Assembly: GCF_963921235.1 (NCBI RefSeq)
Contig: NC_086108.1
Coordinates: 67,892,001-67,956,000, forward strand
Direction: 5' to 3'
Length of the DNA: 64,000 bases
Source of the DNA: Mobula hypostoma
Lineage: Eukaryota
The position numbers were made by a program, and so were the translations under genes. Shown here piece by piece: positions 20,145 through 55,384 of the stretch (positions are counted from its first letter, which is position 1; every line of letters begins with the position of its first letter). The notes below the pieces were generated by a model. It searched no databases. It was given only the letters and a program-made list of their open reading frames with translations, and was not told where the DNA came from.

Positions 20145-23100
20145 ATGACCAGTAATATATTAAAATTGTGCACTTGGAACATTCAGGGGAGTCGTTCACC
20201 AAACAAGAGAAAGAAAATCCTACTAAACCTGAAAAAGGAAAGGGTGGATATAGCCTTATTGCAGGAGACACATTTAAATGATAAAGAACATCCAAAACTG
20301 CAACAGAGTGGATTTGATCAAGTCCATTTTTCATCTTTTAAAACCAGGAGTAGGAGGGTGGCCATTTTAATTAGGAACAACTTACCTTTTTAAGTTATTA
20401 GACTGTATTAAGGATAAGTATGGGAGATTTGTGATTGTTAAGGCTTCAATATATGGAGAGGAATATGGTATTACCAATGTTTACTGCCCTCCAGCTCATC
20501 CTCTCAAATTCCTAACAGATGTTTTTTCCAAACTTACAAGCTTTTCAATACAAAACATTATTGTAGGTGGGGATTTTAATTGTCTCATGGACCCATTTAT
20601 GGACAGAGTGCCTAGTGGTCCCCTATTGCTCTCCTCACAGTCCAAACAAATCATGGGCTTATGTGGAGAACTAGGATGTGTGGATGTCTGGAGGTTGTTA
20701 CATCCCTCAGACAAAGACTTCACATTTTTTTCTAATCCACACAAGTATTACACCAGAATAGACTTTTTTCTAACCCTCAAAACACTCCTAGATTTAGTTG
20801 TATTCTGCACAATTGGAAATATTGCTATTTCTGACCATGCAGCAGTATATTTAAATATTAAGCCCAAAGATAATTCAGCATCATCTAAACATTGGAGGCT
20901 GAATCCTTTCATTCTAAAAGATAATAAATTTATAGACTACTTTATTTCCGAACTCAAAACTTTCCTATCTATTAATTCCAAAACAGCTAGTAGTCCATCA
21001 GCGCTCTGGGAAACCATTAAGTCCCATGCAAGGGGATTAATTATCTCCTACTCTGCTAGTAAGAAATGACAAGCTGCGGAACAGCAGCGCCTAGTGGAAG
21101 CAAGGCTTGCAGCAGCTAAAAAGGATTTTATTAATAAGCCTTCTGCAGCCAAGTTACAGAATATCACAGCCCTACACTGTACACTAAACTCGTCACTTAC
21201 ACAAGCAGCCAAAAGAAAATTAACATTTGCTAAACAATGATTGTTTGAACATGGTGAGAAACCAGGTAGGTATTTGGCTTATTTAGCTAGAAAGAAAAAT
21301 GCCTTTCAGACTATTGCTTCAATTAGGGATGGGACAGGAGCCCTCACTAATAATTCTAAAATGATTAATTTTGTGTTTAAGAATTTTTATTCTAAACTGT
21401 ATCAATCTGAGCAAAGTAATGATGGACGATCTAGGATGGAGTCCTTTTTCAGGAATTTAGATCTTCGAGGCATTTCTTCTGAACAAGAGTCCCTCCTCAA
21501 TGCTCTGTTATCTATACATGAGATACAGGAAGTTGTGAGACAGCTCCAAAGTGGGAAGGCCCCTGGTTCTATTGGACTCACTAGTGAATTCTAGAAAGAG
21601 TTCACAGGGTTATTATCAGAGCCTATGCTAAACATGTTCAATCATGCATTTAATTGTGGTCTCCTCCCACCATCATTGAGAGAAGCTAATATCTCCCTAA
21701 CTCTTAAGAAAGGAAAGAGCCCTGAAGATTGTGCCTCCTACAGGCCCATTTCATTGTTAAATGTTGATTTTAAACTCTTATCTAAAACCTTAGCATTGCG
21801 ATTAGAAACTGTGTTACCTTTTATCATAAAAGAGGCTCAAATGGGTTTTGTAAAAGGCCGTAGATCACCTAACAATATCAGAAGATTACTTAATGTGATT
21901 CAGGCATGTCAGCAACAGGCAGTGGATGACTTGGTGGTTTCCTTAGATGCAGAAAAGGCCTTTGATCATGTTGAATGGCCGTATCTTGTTTTCACTTTAG
22001 AACGATTTGGTTTGGGCAATAATTTTATTAAGCAGTTGAAGGTTCTTTATAATGACCCTTTGGCTATGATTCTCATTCTCACTAATGGTATTAGGTCAGA
22101 TAATTTTAGTATTCTGAGGGGCAACCAGCAGGGCTGCCCTTTAACACCATTACTTTTCACACTAGTGATCTATTGGCTGAGACTATTCGGCGAGACCCCA
22201 AAATATCTGCTGCAGACATAGGACTAAAGTCACATAAAATTACATTGTATGCGGATGACATTCTAACTTCCTCATCAAACCCTGCTATATCATACCTTAT
22301 ACAATGCATCAATTCACTTAGTGCCTTTTCAAATGTTAAAATCAACTTTACTAAATCAGAGGCTATGCCTCTGGAGAATCTGCAGCAAGTACCTGACACT
22401 CAGGGTGTTTTCCCCTTTAAATGGTTGCAGACATGTTTTGTTTACTTAGGCATATTTATCACACCTACGTTTGATCAATTGTTCAAAGCCAGCTTTACAC
22501 AGTTATTTGACAAAATCAAACAGGATCCTGAACGACGGAGCACTCTTCCCATTCCTTGGCTTGGCCGAATATCCTTGCTGAAAATGAACATTCTTCCTTG
22601 TCTGCTCTACCCAATAAGAATGATTCCAGTCATTTTTACCCAACAAATACTTAAACAAATAAATGGCTGGTTTGTTTCTTTCTTCTGGAACAAAAAAAAG
22701 ACCCTGTATTAAAATGTGTAAGTTACAGCTTCCCAGTAGTCTAGGGGGTCTGGATTTTCCAGACATCAAAAAATATCAATTAAGTTCCTTTTTACCTTAT
22801 ATGGTTGACTGGGTTTGCAAGGACCCCTCCTCAATTTGCCTAGACATTGAAGCTTCACAAGCAAAATGTCCTCTTATTAATTTGCTTTTCCTCAATAAGA
22901 TGAAATTAGTTAAGGAATATTGTCACAATCCAATAACAGTTAATACAGTCAGAGCTTGGAGGGCGGTGCGACAAATTGAGGGCAACGCAGCAAAAATATC
23001 ACCCTTCACTCCAATAACCGGCAGTCCGGATTTTCAGCCTGGCATAATGGATTCCGGATTTAAACTTTGGATTTCTAAGGGTATTTTCCATCTAGGAGAT

Positions 23101-23931
23101 TTGTTTGATGAAGGAACGATGATGTCTTTAATTCAAATAGTACAGAAATTTAACATGCCCAATAAGGATCTTTTTCGTTTCTTTCAGATAAGAGATCATA
23201 TACAGAAAAAAACGTCATTGTTAACTGATTTCTATAGTTCTGACATAGAAAAGAGGGTGTTTTGTTCTAAGGGTGAAGTCTCTATTAGTACTTTTTACAG
23301 CATCCTGAGGGAATGTTCTTGTGGAGAAGCTGAGCAGCTGGAATGGGTCTGGGAGTAGAAATTACAGCTGAAACTTGGGAAGACATCTGCGACAATGCAA
23401 AGAAGATTTCAGTTTGTAACAGAACTAAAGCATTGCAACTCAAAATCCTGCATAGAGCCCATCTGACTCCAGATCGTCTTTCGAAATTTAAGACAGGGGT
23501 TTCTCCGATGTGTTCTAAATGTAAAGTAAATACTGGAACTTCCACCCACTGTTTTTGGACTTGTCCCAAACTTCAGGCATATTGGAGTGATATCTTGGGT
23601 GAAATGGAAAAGATTCTGAAGATGGAGCTTGAACTGGACCCAGTGTCTTTTCTCTTAGGCTTACTCAGCAGTTGTATTATTAATGCACATCAGAAAAAAA
23701 CTTTTTAACATCCTGACTTTTTGTGTGAGGAAGAACATTTTACTTTGTTGGATATCCGATAAGGCCCCCGGACTTTTTGGTTGGCGTAAATTAATCATGG
23801 AATACATTGCTTTGGACTTTTTGACATGTATGGTACACCCAAAAACAAATAGTTTTCATAAAACATGGCAACCTTTTCTGCAGTATATAGATGTAAACCT
23901 GTCTGCTATACTAATAAGGGCTTTTGTATAG
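20145..23931 (+). pseudogene. L1 ORF2 (APE endonuclease, RT, CCHC) remnant
   Basis: TWNIQG, LQETHL, GGDFN, YTRIDFF, SDH, YRPISLLNVD.KLLSK.LA.RL, SLDAEKAFD.VEW, QGCPL.PLLF, LYADD, GGL.FP and C..C.......HCFW.C occur in order across fragmented ORFs. Confidence 0.95.
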
Positions 23932-48440: not shown

Positions 48441-50760
48441 TGATAAAGTAATAATAGAATCAAGGACAATACTAAGGAAATCATTCTTCCAATTTAGCTC
48501 AAATGGGTTTTTATACACTGGCTCAGTTCATCCAATACCTCACCTATTCCTTCATTCTTCCACAATTAGTGTCCTCTCAAGCATTTATCCAATTCTTTTT
48601 GAAGGCCCTGATGCCAGATAAAGTGTCACTGGCAAGAATAGCACTTAAAACTTATTGCCAAAAGCATTCAAGAAGGTGGGAGTAAGTCTGCGGTCCTTCT
48701 TGTGATAGTACATTGACAATGATGTTCCACAATATGATCTATCACTAGAACTATGAAAAATGAGAAATCCAACACATTTTAAATCCTAGAAGTGGTTTGG
48801 TGAAGAGAACAACAAAAATGTCTGCAATAGAGTAGAGGCAAAGAGAGACTAATTAAATGATAACAGACTCAAATGGGAGAGAGTGGTAAAGACTTCTTAT
48901 AACTGATCTTTCTGGAGGAGGAGGAGTCAATAGAACTGTAGAATTGTGGAATAGTTACAACAGAGAAGTGGCCCAAAGGTCCATATTGTCTATGCTGACT
49001 CTCTATGGGAACAAATTATTAGTTACAACTCCATCAGCGATTTCTCTGTAGCATTACACATTTTTATTTAATATATATTAGTACAAGTCTCTTAAAGTCC
49101 ACAGAAGAACTTGCCTCCACCATATCCAGAAGTAGATGCATTTGGATTTTCATCATGTGCTGCACAAAGAAATTTTTCTTCTATGCCACAATGATACACT
49201 TTACAACTTACTTAATCCTTGACCTCTCCAAAGGGAATAGCTTCCCATTATCCACTCATCTTTTCATCAGATCTCCCCTCAGCTTTTCCTCTTAAAAATA
49301 ACCCACCCTTAAATCTTGTGCCTGTTGTTCATATCCCAGGAACCAATCCCATAACGAGAAGGCAATAGATAAGCAAGAGAAAAAGCAAAAACAAAAAGCA
49401 ATGTAGCAACAGTGGAATACAAACTCCTGTGCTCATAAGAAATACTCAAACAGATCATGCAATATCTCTGGAGAAGAAAACCTGCTGGTTTTTGAAAGGA
49501 AATGCACATATCTTTTAGGTGAAGTAACTTAACTTCATTTTAATTATGTTTTAGGTGATTATTAGAGTCTGCATCCCAACTTTCTCCCTTCTTCTTGTCC
49601 AGACTCTTGGTTCACAGGCAGTATTCTTTGTCTCAAACATTTGGGGAAATTCACATACAACTCAAAACAGAGAAAGACAAAGCAAATTAGATCTCTATTC
49701 TTTTCCTTACTATTTACTGCTGTAATCTGTAGAGCTCACTACACACAATGAAGAACTAGCCTATTTATTTCTTCAGGACTCTTTGTTTAACACTAAGTGC
49801 ATCAGTATGGTAAATAATTGAAGCACACTTCAATTCCCAAATATACTCCAGTCATATTGTTTGGTTCTAGGCATATAGATATAAATCTACTCCATAAAAT
49901 GTATAATCCAAATTAATGAAATTTCACAGTATCATAGTTTTCACCATGAAAATAAAATGTACTGGATTAAAACAAAACCAATGTAAAATAGGTACATTGA
50001 TGTTCATACCCCAGCAAAATCAAGCTTCTTGAATCTTCTAATGCTAAGTAAAGTCTGACACTCAAAGTGTTTGATCTGGAGGCAGCATTTTAACCTTGTT
50101 GTTGTACTACTAATGTGATATAATAAACACCTGCCCTTGGAAAGGCCACAAAGCAATTGCAATTTCCTTCAATTTGCCTTATGAGACGAAAGGGCAATTT
50201 CAATTAAATCAAGCCAGGAAGCTGTGGTGTCTGAGTGCTTAATTAGTTCTGAAGGGAAATTATAGCACTGAAAAGATGCTGTCACAACCTTTCATCTGCA
50301 CATTTACCTGTCACTCCTCATTATTAGCCCTATTAGGAGAGAATTTGTAGGTATTGCATTTATTTTTTTTATCCCGTATTGTTCAAAAAAGTGTTTGGTA
50401 ACTGACAGTTCCAGAATCTTTGTTGCTCTCTCGCTCTCTCTCTCCTTTGTACTCATCTACTTACATCTCCTCCACATAAATCAGCTGAGATTAACAAGCC
50501 TTCAGCATCCTCTCTCAGTTGGCTCCACTGTTATCACCCCATGTGTCATTCAGTCTCTCTTGGTCTCCAGCCTATCACAGACATCCCCTTTATTCACCCC
50601 ACTTCTCTCCTTCTCTCCTCTCAAGTCTTCAACTTGAACTTTTGGATTTTTTTCCTCATTCTGATGAAAGGGCATCGACCTGAACTGTTTATTCTGCTTT
50701 TCCTTCTAACGAAGGAGAAACATTGAGTGTTTTCAACATTCTCACTGTCTGAAAAAGAAA

Positions 50761-51442
50761 TGTAGCCCCCTGGTAAGCCTCAGGCTCGCTCAACTCGCTT
50801 TCATCTAGGGGGAGCAGCCTTCGGCCCTGACAAACTGGGTAATCAAGTTTGTGTGCCTGCTGTGTGATGTACCCCACCATGCCAAATAACAGACAATACA
50901 CCATATGCGATTAAATGATTACACTTTATAGATCTTACTGGAACTATGTAATTAATAGATTAAATATAAAAGGAAAATAAAAGGCGCCAAGTTCAACCAC
51001 TTCATGCAAAACAGTTGGAGCTCAATTAACGAGTCTTCTTTCCACCATTCGATCCCCTCGACCCCGGTGGTCAACCAGACAGGCCACATGAGTTTGTCTT
51101 TGTCTCCTCTCCTGGCCGAAGACCCTGGGCCTCGGACTCCCGCTCAGGGACGGTCCTGCCGCCCAGGGTCACAGCATCGCGTCTCCTCTCTTTGTCCCCA
51201 TCGCACCTTCTGCCCCAAAGCCCACAAACAATAGTTTACCGACACACAAGAAAGAATAACATCTATCCCAATTGGTTAACAAATGAATACAATGCTCTTA
51301 TCAGTAATATAACCCAAACAAGCAGAGAGAGAAAACTCCTTACATCGCAGTTATTATTACAGAAAAGCCATTTTAATTATAACATAACAAAGAAGTCATT
51401 TTGTTAGCCTTCGCAGTAACATAAAAGAAGAAGCCCCTTACA
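50761..51442 (-). repeat. 3' LTR
   Basis: TGTAGCCCCCTGG...CCCCTTACA, a direct repeat of 53934-54656 with several short deletions. Adjacent to the PPT. Confidence 0.95.
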
Positions 51443-51455
51443 TTCTCCCCCCACC
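51443..51455 (-). promoter_or_regulatory. Polypurine tract
   Basis: GGTGGGGGGAGAA immediately before the 3' LTR on the minus strand. Confidence 0.85.
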
Positions 51456-51947
51456 AAATAAAGTCATGTCCTCATGACTTTTAAATAACTCGCCAACCAT
51501 TCCTGCAGACAGTAAAACCCAATCCAGGTACAAACAGTCACATTGCTCCCCAAACAGTAGACCTTACGCCCTGTTCCACGGGCGCTACATAGGCCAACCT
51601 ATCTGGGAGTTTCGTAATCTTCCAAGACCTCCGTACCCCTCACCTAAACCCTTCAGGCTCGTACACTACTGGGGATACCTCGGGTCTGCTTGCCAACTCC
51701 TCTCTCAATCTCTCACTCATGCCCCCACTGCAACTCGGAGCCCCCTGTCCCGTGTCTAGGGCCCTGCTTCTTTTCCTTCCGGGTCCTGCTGTAACCCAGG
51801 CTTCCCACAGCTAGCCCTCCCCACTACACCTGACTCAGTGGGAGAAGGGCCAAAGGTCTCTTCCTCAATCAAGGGGAAGTTATCGAAAGGCAGCATGTAC
51901 CACACATCCCTCACATCATCCTTTGAATCCGTATTCTTCCTCATTTC

Positions 51948-52304
51948 CTCAATCAGTAGCTGCTGTTTGATTTTCTCCAAACTGAAGCACTTATCCTGGG
52001 CTGCCTCTGCAGCCTCTGCAGCCTCCTGCAGTCAAGACGTCAGCTTCTTCTCTGACTCCTCCAACTCCCGCCCCAGTCTCAGCAGTTCTGACTCAAGCTT
52101 CGTGGCCATCTCCATCTGGGACACAATTACACCACCAGCTTCTTCCAATCTATTCTGGATCGATTTCTTGAGTTTCTGCTGATCCTTTCGAAGGTTGGTC
52201 ATTGTTTCGTCTCTCTGGATTAATTCATCAGTAAATGACCGCAGTTTCGGATCGGAATTACGTTTCCCCGTCTCCACTTTGATGAGCATGAACCCCAATT
52301 CTTC
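51948..52304 (-). pseudogene. Captured sarcomeric myosin heavy-chain rod fragments (three segments, one frame, one internal TGA)
   Basis: EELGFMLIKVETGKRNSDPKLRSFTDEL..RDETMTNLRKDQ / RLEEAGG...SQMEM..KLESELLRL.RELEES / [36 protein letters not shown] resemble the class II myosin rod motifs [42 protein letters not shown] and [34 protein letters not shown] (recalled, not searched). Confidence 0.8.
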
Positions 52305-52324
52305 AGTGGTTGTCCAGGGCTCCG

Positions 52325-52630
52325 GCGAATCCAAACCCTAGGCGATCATCCCACATACGCCAAAACTCCAAACATCTCCACATCCCCCATGGTCTTCCCC
52401 ACGCCCCGCGAGAAGGTTGCAGGGACTCGAGATATGCCCTGTGGCATCTTTTCGGATCAGAAGAATCCTAGGAGACCTATAACGGCTGTCTTCTCCTTGT
52501 CGGCCTCACTCATCGGGATCTGGCAACATCCACTCCTCAGATCCAGCACATTAAACCACGTCACACCATACAAACAGACCATCGCATCTTCAGCCCTCAG
52601 GGCCGTATTCTGGTCAATTCTGTTCAGAGT
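52325..52630 (-). pseudogene. Gypsy reverse transcriptase N-terminal remnant
   Basis: Manual translation: [59 protein letters not shown]...VLAYV(frameshift)DDRLGFG. Confidence 0.85.
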
Positions 52631-52802
52631 CCTACAATCTCACACCCACACCGCCTACGTCTTCCACGGCTACAGGGTCCAGTCGCCGCGACCTCTCTCT
52701 CACCGAGGTGTCTTCAGTGGTTAACTCCCCTCCCTTGTGGTATTTTGGAGTGTCTACTAAGAGGGTCTCAGCCTCAGATACATCCCCTAGGCTGCACCAC
52801 AA

Positions 52803-53130
52803 TCAGCTCTCGTTTAAATTCAGTACCGGCCCAAGGCTGCTACACACGTCCTCACAAGCAGCTCGAAACATTAGGTGCACAGACAATGCCCCGATGAACT
52901 CCAGTGTCACTGACCAATAATCGTCTTCTGGATAATCACCGGCACTGGTACCCCAAATCTCCAGTGCCCTTAATGTTGTCAAGGGTAAATGCTTCAGAAA
53001 CCAGTTGTAAAACGAACTGTACAACAACTTGACCTGCACCCCAATGTCGAGGATGGCTTTAGCATAGCTTCCATCTATCCGTAATGACACACAGGGGCGT
53101 GGTCCCTCTAAGCCTTCAGGAATAGGGTCT
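52803..53130 (-). pseudogene. Gypsy aspartic protease remnant
   Basis: IPEGLEGP....[22 protein letters not shown]...LKHLPL, with the active-site LD(T/S)G altered to LDIG. Confidence 0.8.
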
Positions 53131-53199
53131 ATTCCTTTCGGCAGTTCCCTGGTACCTTGCTGGGAACGTGCTCCCCCAGAAACCCCAAGCTGTTCCCCC

Positions 53200-53900
53200 A
53201 ATGGGCCTCCACTAAGTTTCCCGACACCTCTCTGATCAGCTGAACAACTGAGGGAGGGGCTGATCCCCTTAAATTATCCCCCTGGCACTGCAAGCAATTT
53301 AGCTGTCCTCCTAGCCAAAGAAGATACACTGAAAGCTTTTCCCCCAATCTCCTGACACAGGTATGGAAAGTCCCCCAGGTGCTGCATTTTACTTCCAGTC
53401 GAACCAGTCGCTTTCAGATAACTGGCAGCTGTCACTACCGGGTAATTGACCCTGACAGTTCTGACAATGTCAACAGCCCGCCTACTCAAACTTTCAACCA
53501 ATCCCTGTCGCTCTCCCTCAACTGAGCACTGCCACTCATCTAACAACTGAGAGATCACCTCCACCCACGTCTCATACTCCTCCGCCCTTTTAGGGGTGGA
53601 CAATATCCCAAAAGCTAGGCGGAGCCTGCCATAGCTGTAACATTTATTCACAGACACTACATCTGAATCAGACCACTCTTTCCTCTCTCTCCCAACAGTA
53701 TGGACAGCCCATGGTTCTGCCTCACCTGGGGCACCAATAGACACTGACAGTCCCACCACCAGCTCGTCAGAGCTAGTCTGAACTCGAACAAAGACCTCCG
53801 AGGCACCAACAGCCACCCCACCCAACACGCATGCAGGAATAACCAGCAATCCTACAGAGACACAGCAGCACTGATTTAAACAGGGCAATCACACAGCACC
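53200..53900 (-). pseudogene. PNMA/Ma-like Gypsy gag remnant
   Basis: Y.RLR..FG...TP...EEYETW......L.EWQCS...RQ.LVESL...A.DIVR is characteristic of PNMA-type capsids. Confidence 0.8.
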
Positions 53901-53912
53901 CCACTGAATCAA

Positions 53913-53931
53913 ATCTCGGACAAAGCCCCGA
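53913..53931 (-). promoter_or_regulatory. Degenerate primer-binding site, tRNA-Pro-like
   Basis: TCGGGGCTTTGTCCGAGAT two bases after the 5' LTR, versus canonical PBS-Pro TGGGGGCTCGTCCGGGAT. Confidence 0.75.
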
Positions 53932-53933
53932 AA

Positions 53934-54656
53934 TGTAGCCCCCTGGTAAGCCTCAGGCTCGCTCAACTCGCTTTCATCTAGGGGGAGCAGCCTTCGGCCC
54001 TGACAAACTGGGTAATCAAGTTTGTGTGCCTGCTGTGTGATGTACCCCACCATGCCAAATAACAGACAATACACCATATGCGATTAAATGATTACACTTT
54101 ATAGATCTTACTGGAACTATGTAATTAATAGAGATAAAATATAAAAGGAAAATAAAAGGCACCAAACTTATCAAAGTTCAACCACTCTGTGCACAACAGT
54201 TGGAGCTCAATTAATGGAGTCTTCTTTCCACCATTCGATCCCCTCTGATCCCCTCGACCCGCTGCCTGGGACCAACCATGGTGGTCAGCCAGACACTCCA
54301 CACTAGTCTGTCTTCGTCTCCTCTCCTCGCCGAAGACCCTGGGCCTTGAACTCCCACTCAGGGTCGGTCCCGCCGCCCAGGGTCACAGCATTACATCTCC
54401 TCTCTTTGTCCCCATCGAGCCTTATGCCCCAAAGCCTGCGAACAATAGCTTACAGACACACAAGAAAGAATACCATCTATCCCAATTGGTTAACAAATGA
54501 ATACAATGCTCTTATCAGTAATATAACCCAAACAAGCAGAGAGAGAAAACTCCTTACATCGCAGTTATTATTACAGAAAAGCCATTTTAATTATAACATA
54601 ACAAAGAAGCCATTTTGTTAGCCTTCACAGTAACATAAAAGAAGAAACCCCTTACA
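53934..54656 (-). repeat. 5' LTR
   Basis: Direct repeat of 50761-51442. Adjacent to the PBS. Confidence 0.95.
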
Positions 54657-55384
54657 GAAACTTCTTTGACAAAAACATTCAAATTCTTTGGTGTAGTTGA
54701 TGAAAGTTTGCCAAATAATCAACAGTTTGATCTCTTATGCATAATACTTCTCTGAATCCTTTGCATTTTCTTCATTTCTAAATGCTTAATTCTTTTTAAA
54801 CATTCAATAAGTTACAACCCCACCCCTCAACTGTGCAGGAAGACCAAAGCAAGAAAAAATATAAATATTCTGGAGTATTCAATAGCACCATAATTTTTTA
54901 TTCAAGTATTGTGTTTTGGAAAAGCATACATTTTGTGTAAATCAACATGCTATGTTAGCATATGTTAACTGAATGTTTTAAAACGGATCATTAATAAAAC
55001 TCTTCTGAGAGTTACCTATGCAAAAAAATATCAGCACTTTATTCAGAACCTACATTTGCACAATCAACCTGGAACTCAATGCCCCCTTTGCAACTGGATT
55101 CTTGACTTCCTGAAAAGAGACGACAATCAGTAAGGATGAGCAGCAATACCTCCACTGTGATTATTCTCAACACTGGTGTACCACACAGCTGCATCTTCAG
55201 CCACCAGCTCCACTCCCAATGCACTTACCAATGGATCTCAAGGGAGACATATATGTACTTTGATAATAAATTTACTTTGACTTTAACTGCATGATGAGAT
55301 TCTACTCGAACTCCATCTACAAGTTTGCAGTTGCTACCACTGTAGTGGGCCGTATCTCAAATAATGATGAGTCAGAGTGCAGGA

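Follow-up and report, generated by a model that had tools for sequence, protein, structure and literature searches.

The window analysed here, a 64,000-nt stretch of the 3.48-Gb genome of Mobula hypostoma (G000:C50:67.89-67.96 Mb), holds one decayed member of an abundant non-autonomous ray element, an LTR family that carries pieces of a spliced host myosin mRNA. The amplifying lineages of this family were shown statistically to have kept their reading frame open while their amino acids drifted at a neutral ratio. From the sequences, we consider it probable that the family's history was one of integrase loss, mRNA capture and spread in trans, with selection on translatability in cis and the myosin as a passenger.

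The element in the window

The element is ~3.9 kb long, of the Ty3/Gypsy type, and lies on the minus strand. An initial annotation of the window had described a Gypsy element with LTRs, TSD, PBS and polypurine tract here, and all were found on that strand, the PBS as a PBS-like stretch. In the element's own 5' to 3' order, the parts are as follows:

54657..54660, strand not assigned: TSD GAAA on the 5' side
53934..54656, minus: 5' LTR, 723 nt, TG...CA
53912..53933, minus: PBS-like stretch, directly abutting the 5' LTR and similar in sister copies
53277..53888, minus: gag remnant, PNMA family (PF14893, E=1.4e-10)
53216..53222, minus: G_GGA_AAC heptamer, candidate ribosomal frameshift site, read in the gag frame where gag and pol natively overlap (-1)
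52896..53195, minus: protease-region remnant (tblastn with pol protein P0137, aa 3-102)
52352..52718, minus: reverse-transcriptase (RT) remnant (P0137 aa 352-372 and 422-509)
52141..52315, minus: myosin piece 1, 88.6% identical to spliced host exons (G000:C68:14.52-14.58 Mb), crossing two exon-exon junctions
52056..52153, minus: myosin piece 2 (RLEEAGG), 87.8% identical to host exons, crossing one exon-exon junction
51947..52067, minus: myosin piece 3 (LQEA...CFSLEK), 84.3% identical to host exons, crossing one exon-exon junction
51458..51946, minus: final codons of the linker, junction left by the integrase deletion, and C-terminal tail of pol
51443..51457, minus: polypurine tract, preceding the 3' LTR
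50761..51442, minus: 3' LTR, 682 nt
50757..50760, strand not assigned: TSD GAAA on the 3' side

Paired LTRs with TG...CA ends, a short TSD and a polypurine tract identify the element as Ty3/Gypsy, as does the domain order gag-PR-RT-RNase H-integrase present in close integrase-bearing relatives; the window copy keeps its gag, PR and RT remnants in Gypsy order. It does not qualify as autonomous, the chimeric copies that were mapped having no integrase and a truncated RT. The LTR pair is 94.7% identical (K2P 0.055). A search of the window for tRNA genes found none.

The gag remnant has an internal deletion and lacks both the zinc knuckle and a start codon, and the RT remnant is truncated on both sides. 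Private frame-breaking indels of this copy lie at ~52335-52355, where most sister copies have RT and myosin in a single frame, and the myosin contains a stop codon at 52032-52034. With no start codon in gag, a stop in the myosin, and frame breaks of its own both in gag and where RT meets myosin, the window copy is a dead insertion. The RT remnant does adjoin the myosin, as annotated, but this junction is a later deletion, with the copy broken at the YxDD region.

Identity and donor of the myosin insert

The insert spans 51947-52315 on the minus strand and contains both peptides quoted in the initial annotation, where it was read as a myosin rod of ~120 codons. The myosin assignment held, but the rod is not contiguous: it consists of three pieces of spliced mRNA from a single host myosin gene, with 84-89% identity to its exons and four introns missing, at approximately aa 945-1002, 1142-1174 and 1380-1419 in myosin-16 numbering. 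Pieces 1 and 2 are joined through an in-frame deletion at a short repeat. A PDB search with the insert returned myosins in 8/8 matches (best E=9e-8). Aligned to the host donor protein, it scored 213 against a maximum of 89 in 500 shuffles, and this test, together with the DNA identity to host exons, rules out generic coiled-coil similarity. The Pfam Myosin_tail_1 model did not detect the insert, and no myosin domain was found in the element proteins either. The insert is also not a native pol region, since all eight non-chimeric relatives checked are without a myosin match.

When the longest copy of the family was compared with G000:C68:14.52-14.71 Mb, it was found to join nine consecutive host exons at 80-96% identity, with canonical splice sites at the exon borders. 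A host genomic span of 182 kb is represented by ~980 nt and introns are absent, in line with the annotated capture of a spliced cellular mRNA. Other host myosins reached only 68-80% identity over short stretches, and they and the fast cluster were rejected as donors on identity. A tree built on the captured region places the elements with the gene at C68:14.5-14.7 Mb. Another host gene (C36:112.7 Mb) clusters with shark, coelacanth and marsupial MYH16 (support 100) and the donor falls outside this clade, in a tree with an arbitrary root, two rows with a misaligned second segment, and no named MYH15 included. Identity of the donor is ~60% with MYH16 proteins and ~55% with fast myosins; in it, as in the C36 gene, one large rod exon is split. 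It thus appears to be a divergent MYH16-like paralogue; its placement in the tree rules out the MYH16 orthologue. The ancient MYH16/MYH15/MYH7B-like donor suggested earlier is therefore retained as MYH16-like, but not as MYH16 itself, and the gene looks like a separate paralogue that deserves its own name.

This donor is a long-intron gene at G000:C68:14.52-14.74 Mb (L122-L126, L137-L157), ~0.6 Mb from the fast myosin cluster, and has a 71% match in Narcine. Beside the fast cluster, at G000:C68:16.025 Mb (L073), lies a decayed fast-myosin-like exon with two stops.

Family size and species range

A DNA search of the genome returned 837 candidates, and the other 39 of the 40 copies scored were 91-95% identical; the longer form returned 1,324 candidates, of which 141 were scored. 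Pattern counts with up to three mismatches (controls 0) found the window-type internal myosin junction (piece 1/2) at no fewer than 166 loci and the 3' end of the insert at at least 277. The 4-bp TSDs of 11 copies (7 exact, 3 with one mismatch, 1 unreadable) are all different. The genome-wide junction counts and differing TSDs confirm the amplified family that had been proposed. LTR pairs of the checked copies diverge by 0.055-0.11.

Comparison of copies shows long, medium and short subfamilies that arose via later deletions at short repeats, in which pol and the myosin each lost the greater part of their sequence. The best protein matches are predicted Mobula proteins, and element copies carry the public labels myosin heavy chain or MYH16 in Mobula and Hypanus (P0001, P0126, P0129, P0133, P0134). 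Among the sequencing runs listed, none is recorded as RNA; three that are presumed to be RNA contain element sequence as contigs, which speaks neither for nor against expression or co-transcription from the LTR.

Predicted proteins from Hypanus sabinus and Hemitrygon akajei share with the Mobula copies both the myosin/tail junction and the junction inside the myosin. Because these junctions are identical in stingrays, the capture is older than the stingray/devil-ray split. Matches in Narcine are not flanked by pol and resemble the host gene.

Order of integrase loss and capture

Compared with distant intact relatives (70-75% identity), the insert seems to occupy the place of ~1.58 kb of integrase, and the initial annotation had placed the myosin in lieu of most of pol. 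A closer family (82-84%) contradicts this. Its members L166 and L167 have neither myosin nor integrase, and their RNase H linker is directly joined to the pol tail; L169, which is 89.6% identical to L167, retains integrase. The chimera holds the last linker codons and the same integrase-deletion junction downstream of its myosin. Together with the integrase-less sister family, this indicates that the myosin replaced ~55 nt in a parent already without integrase, where the nearest relatives (80-88% identical) stand in for the true parent. Among 40 listed matches of the myosin-free family, 33 stop at the capture junction, and integrase is absent in three of the four that were inspected. This Gypsy family (L166, L167, L168) has many copies, and L167 appears to have a further internal gag deletion.

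At the 5' switch, parent and host agree in 10/11 nt (random pairs 3e-5), and at the 3' switch in 10/12 nt (random pairs 9e-5). A template-switch model of LTR-mediated retrocopies, as set out in the consulted part of Tan et al. 2016 (PMC5131818), predicts such microsimilarity. An alternative that we regard as largely refuted, and the least probable of those considered, is capture by an intact element with replacement of the integrase, or by splicing from an element inside a myosin intron. The place taken by the insert in comparison with the distant relatives would fit the former, and the 5' junction, which falls on a host splice acceptor, the latter. However, a GT donor is missing from the relatives at the junction, where they show the 10/11 similarity to the exon start. 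The 12 nt past the myosin match the pre-integrase linker in 12/12 positions and the host in 10/12, and are followed by the post-integrase tail as in the integrase-less family.

In the history that we favour, a Gypsy element with a PNMA-type gag would first have undergone an in-frame deletion of the entire integrase and multiplied with integrase presumably supplied by intact relatives. During reverse transcription, a template switch onto a co-packaged spliced MYH16-like mRNA and back, which would account for the structure observed, then probably swapped the ~55 nt of RNase H-integrase linker for myosin rod, sense and in frame. Many further rounds of retrotransposition in trans followed, and short-repeat deletions generated the long, medium and short subfamilies, as the copies show. 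Mobilisation in trans had been put forward in the initial annotation and is supported, with integrase absent from the mapped chimeras and intact integrase-bearing relatives present in the genome.

Reading-frame conservation without amino-acid constraint

Every one of the 21 modal junctions found in at least two copies keeps the frame (70 copies: 68 chimeric, 2 parental), in a count that omitted composites and one small parental indel. After dropping two that are possibly natural length differences from the reference and three open to bias from how the medium copies were picked, 16/16 remained in frame. Single-copy large events were in frame in 25/63 cases, and the repeat-pair null for an in-frame deletion was 0.39-0.71. 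The resulting excess has p values from 4e-7 to 0.003 (at most 0.003 for the 16-junction set), with the chimeric sample drawn from several hundred copies and 30 medium copies picked via an annotated open protein.

The six main shared gag deletions are multiples of three, and gag is in frame up to the G_GGA_AAC heptamer at the native -1 overlap, which 33 of the 42 anchor-containing copies retain. This heptamer is ranked among the most shifty in the portion of PMC5009743 consulted. In a complete relative, pol begins separately just past the heptamer, and what seemed to be a break between gag and pol is the native -1 offset. Single-copy deletions at the gag/pol overlap of L158 and L161 fuse gag into the pol frame and bypass the -1 site. 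Read by eye, 7/7 short copies have a Met in frame ahead of the gag remnant. L018 has, just past the PBS and ahead of the gag remnant, about six repeats of a 30-nt unit that contains a Met codon in frame; the window copy is without that Met. The pol-myosin frame closes ~270 nt before the 3' LTR in short and long copies alike.

No codon has a majority stop in either group across 174 shared changes, with 8.0 expected (P=0.0002), or across an unbiased subset of 103, with 5.6 expected (P=0.003). Two apparent shared stops vanished once whole codons were read. Nonsense depletion within any single region alone was not significant.

Shared net frameshifts in the short copies, scored against two reference copies, numbered 0 in 1,775 coding nt. 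The control had 14 in 1,066 nt, of which 3 lay in the distal tail (384 nt) and 11 in the LTR (682 nt); it is possibly inflated, as LTRs may change faster or be swapped. Private 1-2 nt indels were 22 in coding sequence and 21 in tail/LTR, giving p=0.00035 for shared versus private (Fisher; p=0.014 with the tail alone). An adjacent -4/-2 pair at ~53265 was scored as one net -6 event. A gag frameshift is common to 5/20 short copies (2/8 in another set), and 17 minor off-frame rows with 2-4 copies each are read as private indels atop modal events.

Amino-acid-level selection was looked for through shared versus singleton substitution ratios, and none was found in either part. Synonymous to non-synonymous counts in the myosin were 32:70 for shared changes and 75:174 for singletons (p=0.90), and in gag/pol 28:100 and 103:318 (p=0.64).

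Fully neutral cargo is the first rival to selection on the frame. Capture and spread would then have occurred as described, with codon-phased repeats yielding in-frame junctions and fixed stops missing by chance. Repeat pairs are in frame up to 71% of the time in myosin sequence, some off-frame sublineages did spread, and the lack of amino-acid constraint is what such a reading expects. Private deletions of more than 2 nt in the same coding regions, however, are in frame in only 9/25 cases, and the shared-versus-private frameshift contrast and the missing stops (in the unbiased subset) are independent of repeat phase, so we find neutral cargo unlikely.

The opposite possibility is that the fusion protein matters, its coiled coil aiding oligomerisation of the truncated Gag-Pol or co-assembly with helper particles, or that the host uses some copy. 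All chimeric subfamilies examined retain part of the rod in frame, devil rays and stingrays both still carry the chimera, and a coiled coil may tolerate many substitutions. Against this, shared substitutions have no synonymous excess, different subfamilies retain different myosin pieces, gag and pol remnants follow the same frame-only pattern, and the myosin-free parent family spread too. We consider a role of the fusion protein improbable. A more specific and comparably doubtful version is that the myosin coiled coil would function within a Gag-Pol-myosin protein made by frameshifting, which brings the element's own RNA into helper particles. If true, a selfish element would have co-opted a host structural fragment and outspread its parent across ray lineages.

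The amplifying lineages kept gag open to the native -1 site and pol-myosin open to ~270 nt before the 3' LTR, as the statistics show, and the reading we prefer is selection on translatability with the myosin as passenger. The most likely cause of this frame keeping is a need for the RNA to be translatable in cis if it is to be copied; the frame would matter and the myosin sequence would not. Early stops might expose the element RNA to nonsense-mediated decay, or a Gag or Gag-Pol remnant made in cis might escort the RNA into helper particles, a route with a reported precedent in mouse IAP 1-delta-1. We weigh the decay route slightly above the escort route since the amino acids appear unconstrained, and relaxed constraint near the 3' end would suit it as well. 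Readthrough can suppress NMD, according to the part of PMC5360307 consulted.

Relation to known LTR gene captures

A literature search within the main texts of mostly open-access papers found no myosin-carrying LTR family. The initial annotation had raised novelty for a myosin-carrying vertebrate Gypsy family; the process is one that Tan et al. had already described. The ray family is a variant of LTR-mediated retrocopying; the frame conservation is new here.

The zebrafish, chicken, mouse and human retrocopies treated in the consulted part of PMC5131818 likewise have partial spliced mRNA between the halves of an LTR element, microsimilarity at both switches, sense and in-frame orientation, and secondary non-autonomous retrotransposition. 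The ray family has an intron-free piece of host mRNA in LTR-element flanks with microsimilarity at both switches, and secondary retrotransposition is seen in its shared switch points at different insertion sites. In contrast to those retrocopies, as far as that text covers them, it occupies hundreds of loci rather than a few, occurs in two ray families, was captured into an integrase-less parent, and went through a long series of deletions in which only the frame was conserved. Maize Bs1, in the same text, is also an LTR element with host exonic sequence and copies with common switch points, but has 1-5 copies and three parental genes, against at least 277 loci and one parental gene here.

The crocodilian CrocERV29 (KIT-ligand) and CrocERV31 (nectin3) are, in the consulted part of PMC4299795, vertebrate LTR lineages that captured a host mRNA and multiplied, and that are older than a species split. 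Both belong to the endogenous retroviruses, number 6-9 copies and have a captured protein under purifying selection, whereas the ray element is a Gypsy with a structural rod fragment and unconstrained amino acids. Mouse IAP 1-delta-1, as presented in the consulted part of PMC6466679, is a non-autonomous deletion derivative with an open gag-pol frame and reported cis action, and the ray element is similarly non-autonomous and has retained an open frame through its deletions. IAP 1-delta-1 differs in having one deletion, no host cargo and a tested function; in the ray element, cis action is suggested by the sequence.

The family is a large vertebrate case of LTR gene capture whose history can be read from its copies, from integrase loss through capture to a deletion series. 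Its host-derived insert has a known ancestor and no enzymatic role, which allows selection on the frame to be told apart from selection on the protein. Should the frame-only signal hold across the genome, it would be evidence from nature that non-autonomous LTR elements can spread only while translatable, and would explain why LTR-borne retrocopies, though no functional genes, tend to lie in frame.

Other sequences

Decayed fragments of a myosin tail, likewise without introns, form another dispersed set (L021-L025, L028, L032, L033, L036, L046), on G000 contigs C18, C50, C184, C157, C21, C22, C12 and C9. They are 74-83% alike mutually and 82-87% identical to exons of a myosin gene at C45:100.2 Mb, which we take from its sequence to be of the non-muscle type. 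These are either processed pseudogenes or another mobile family, and are unrelated to the Gypsy-myosin element. Within the window, four consecutive long frames at 20371-23358 on the plus strand resemble a LINE endonuclease and RT, and other long frames resemble CR1/L2-type RT.
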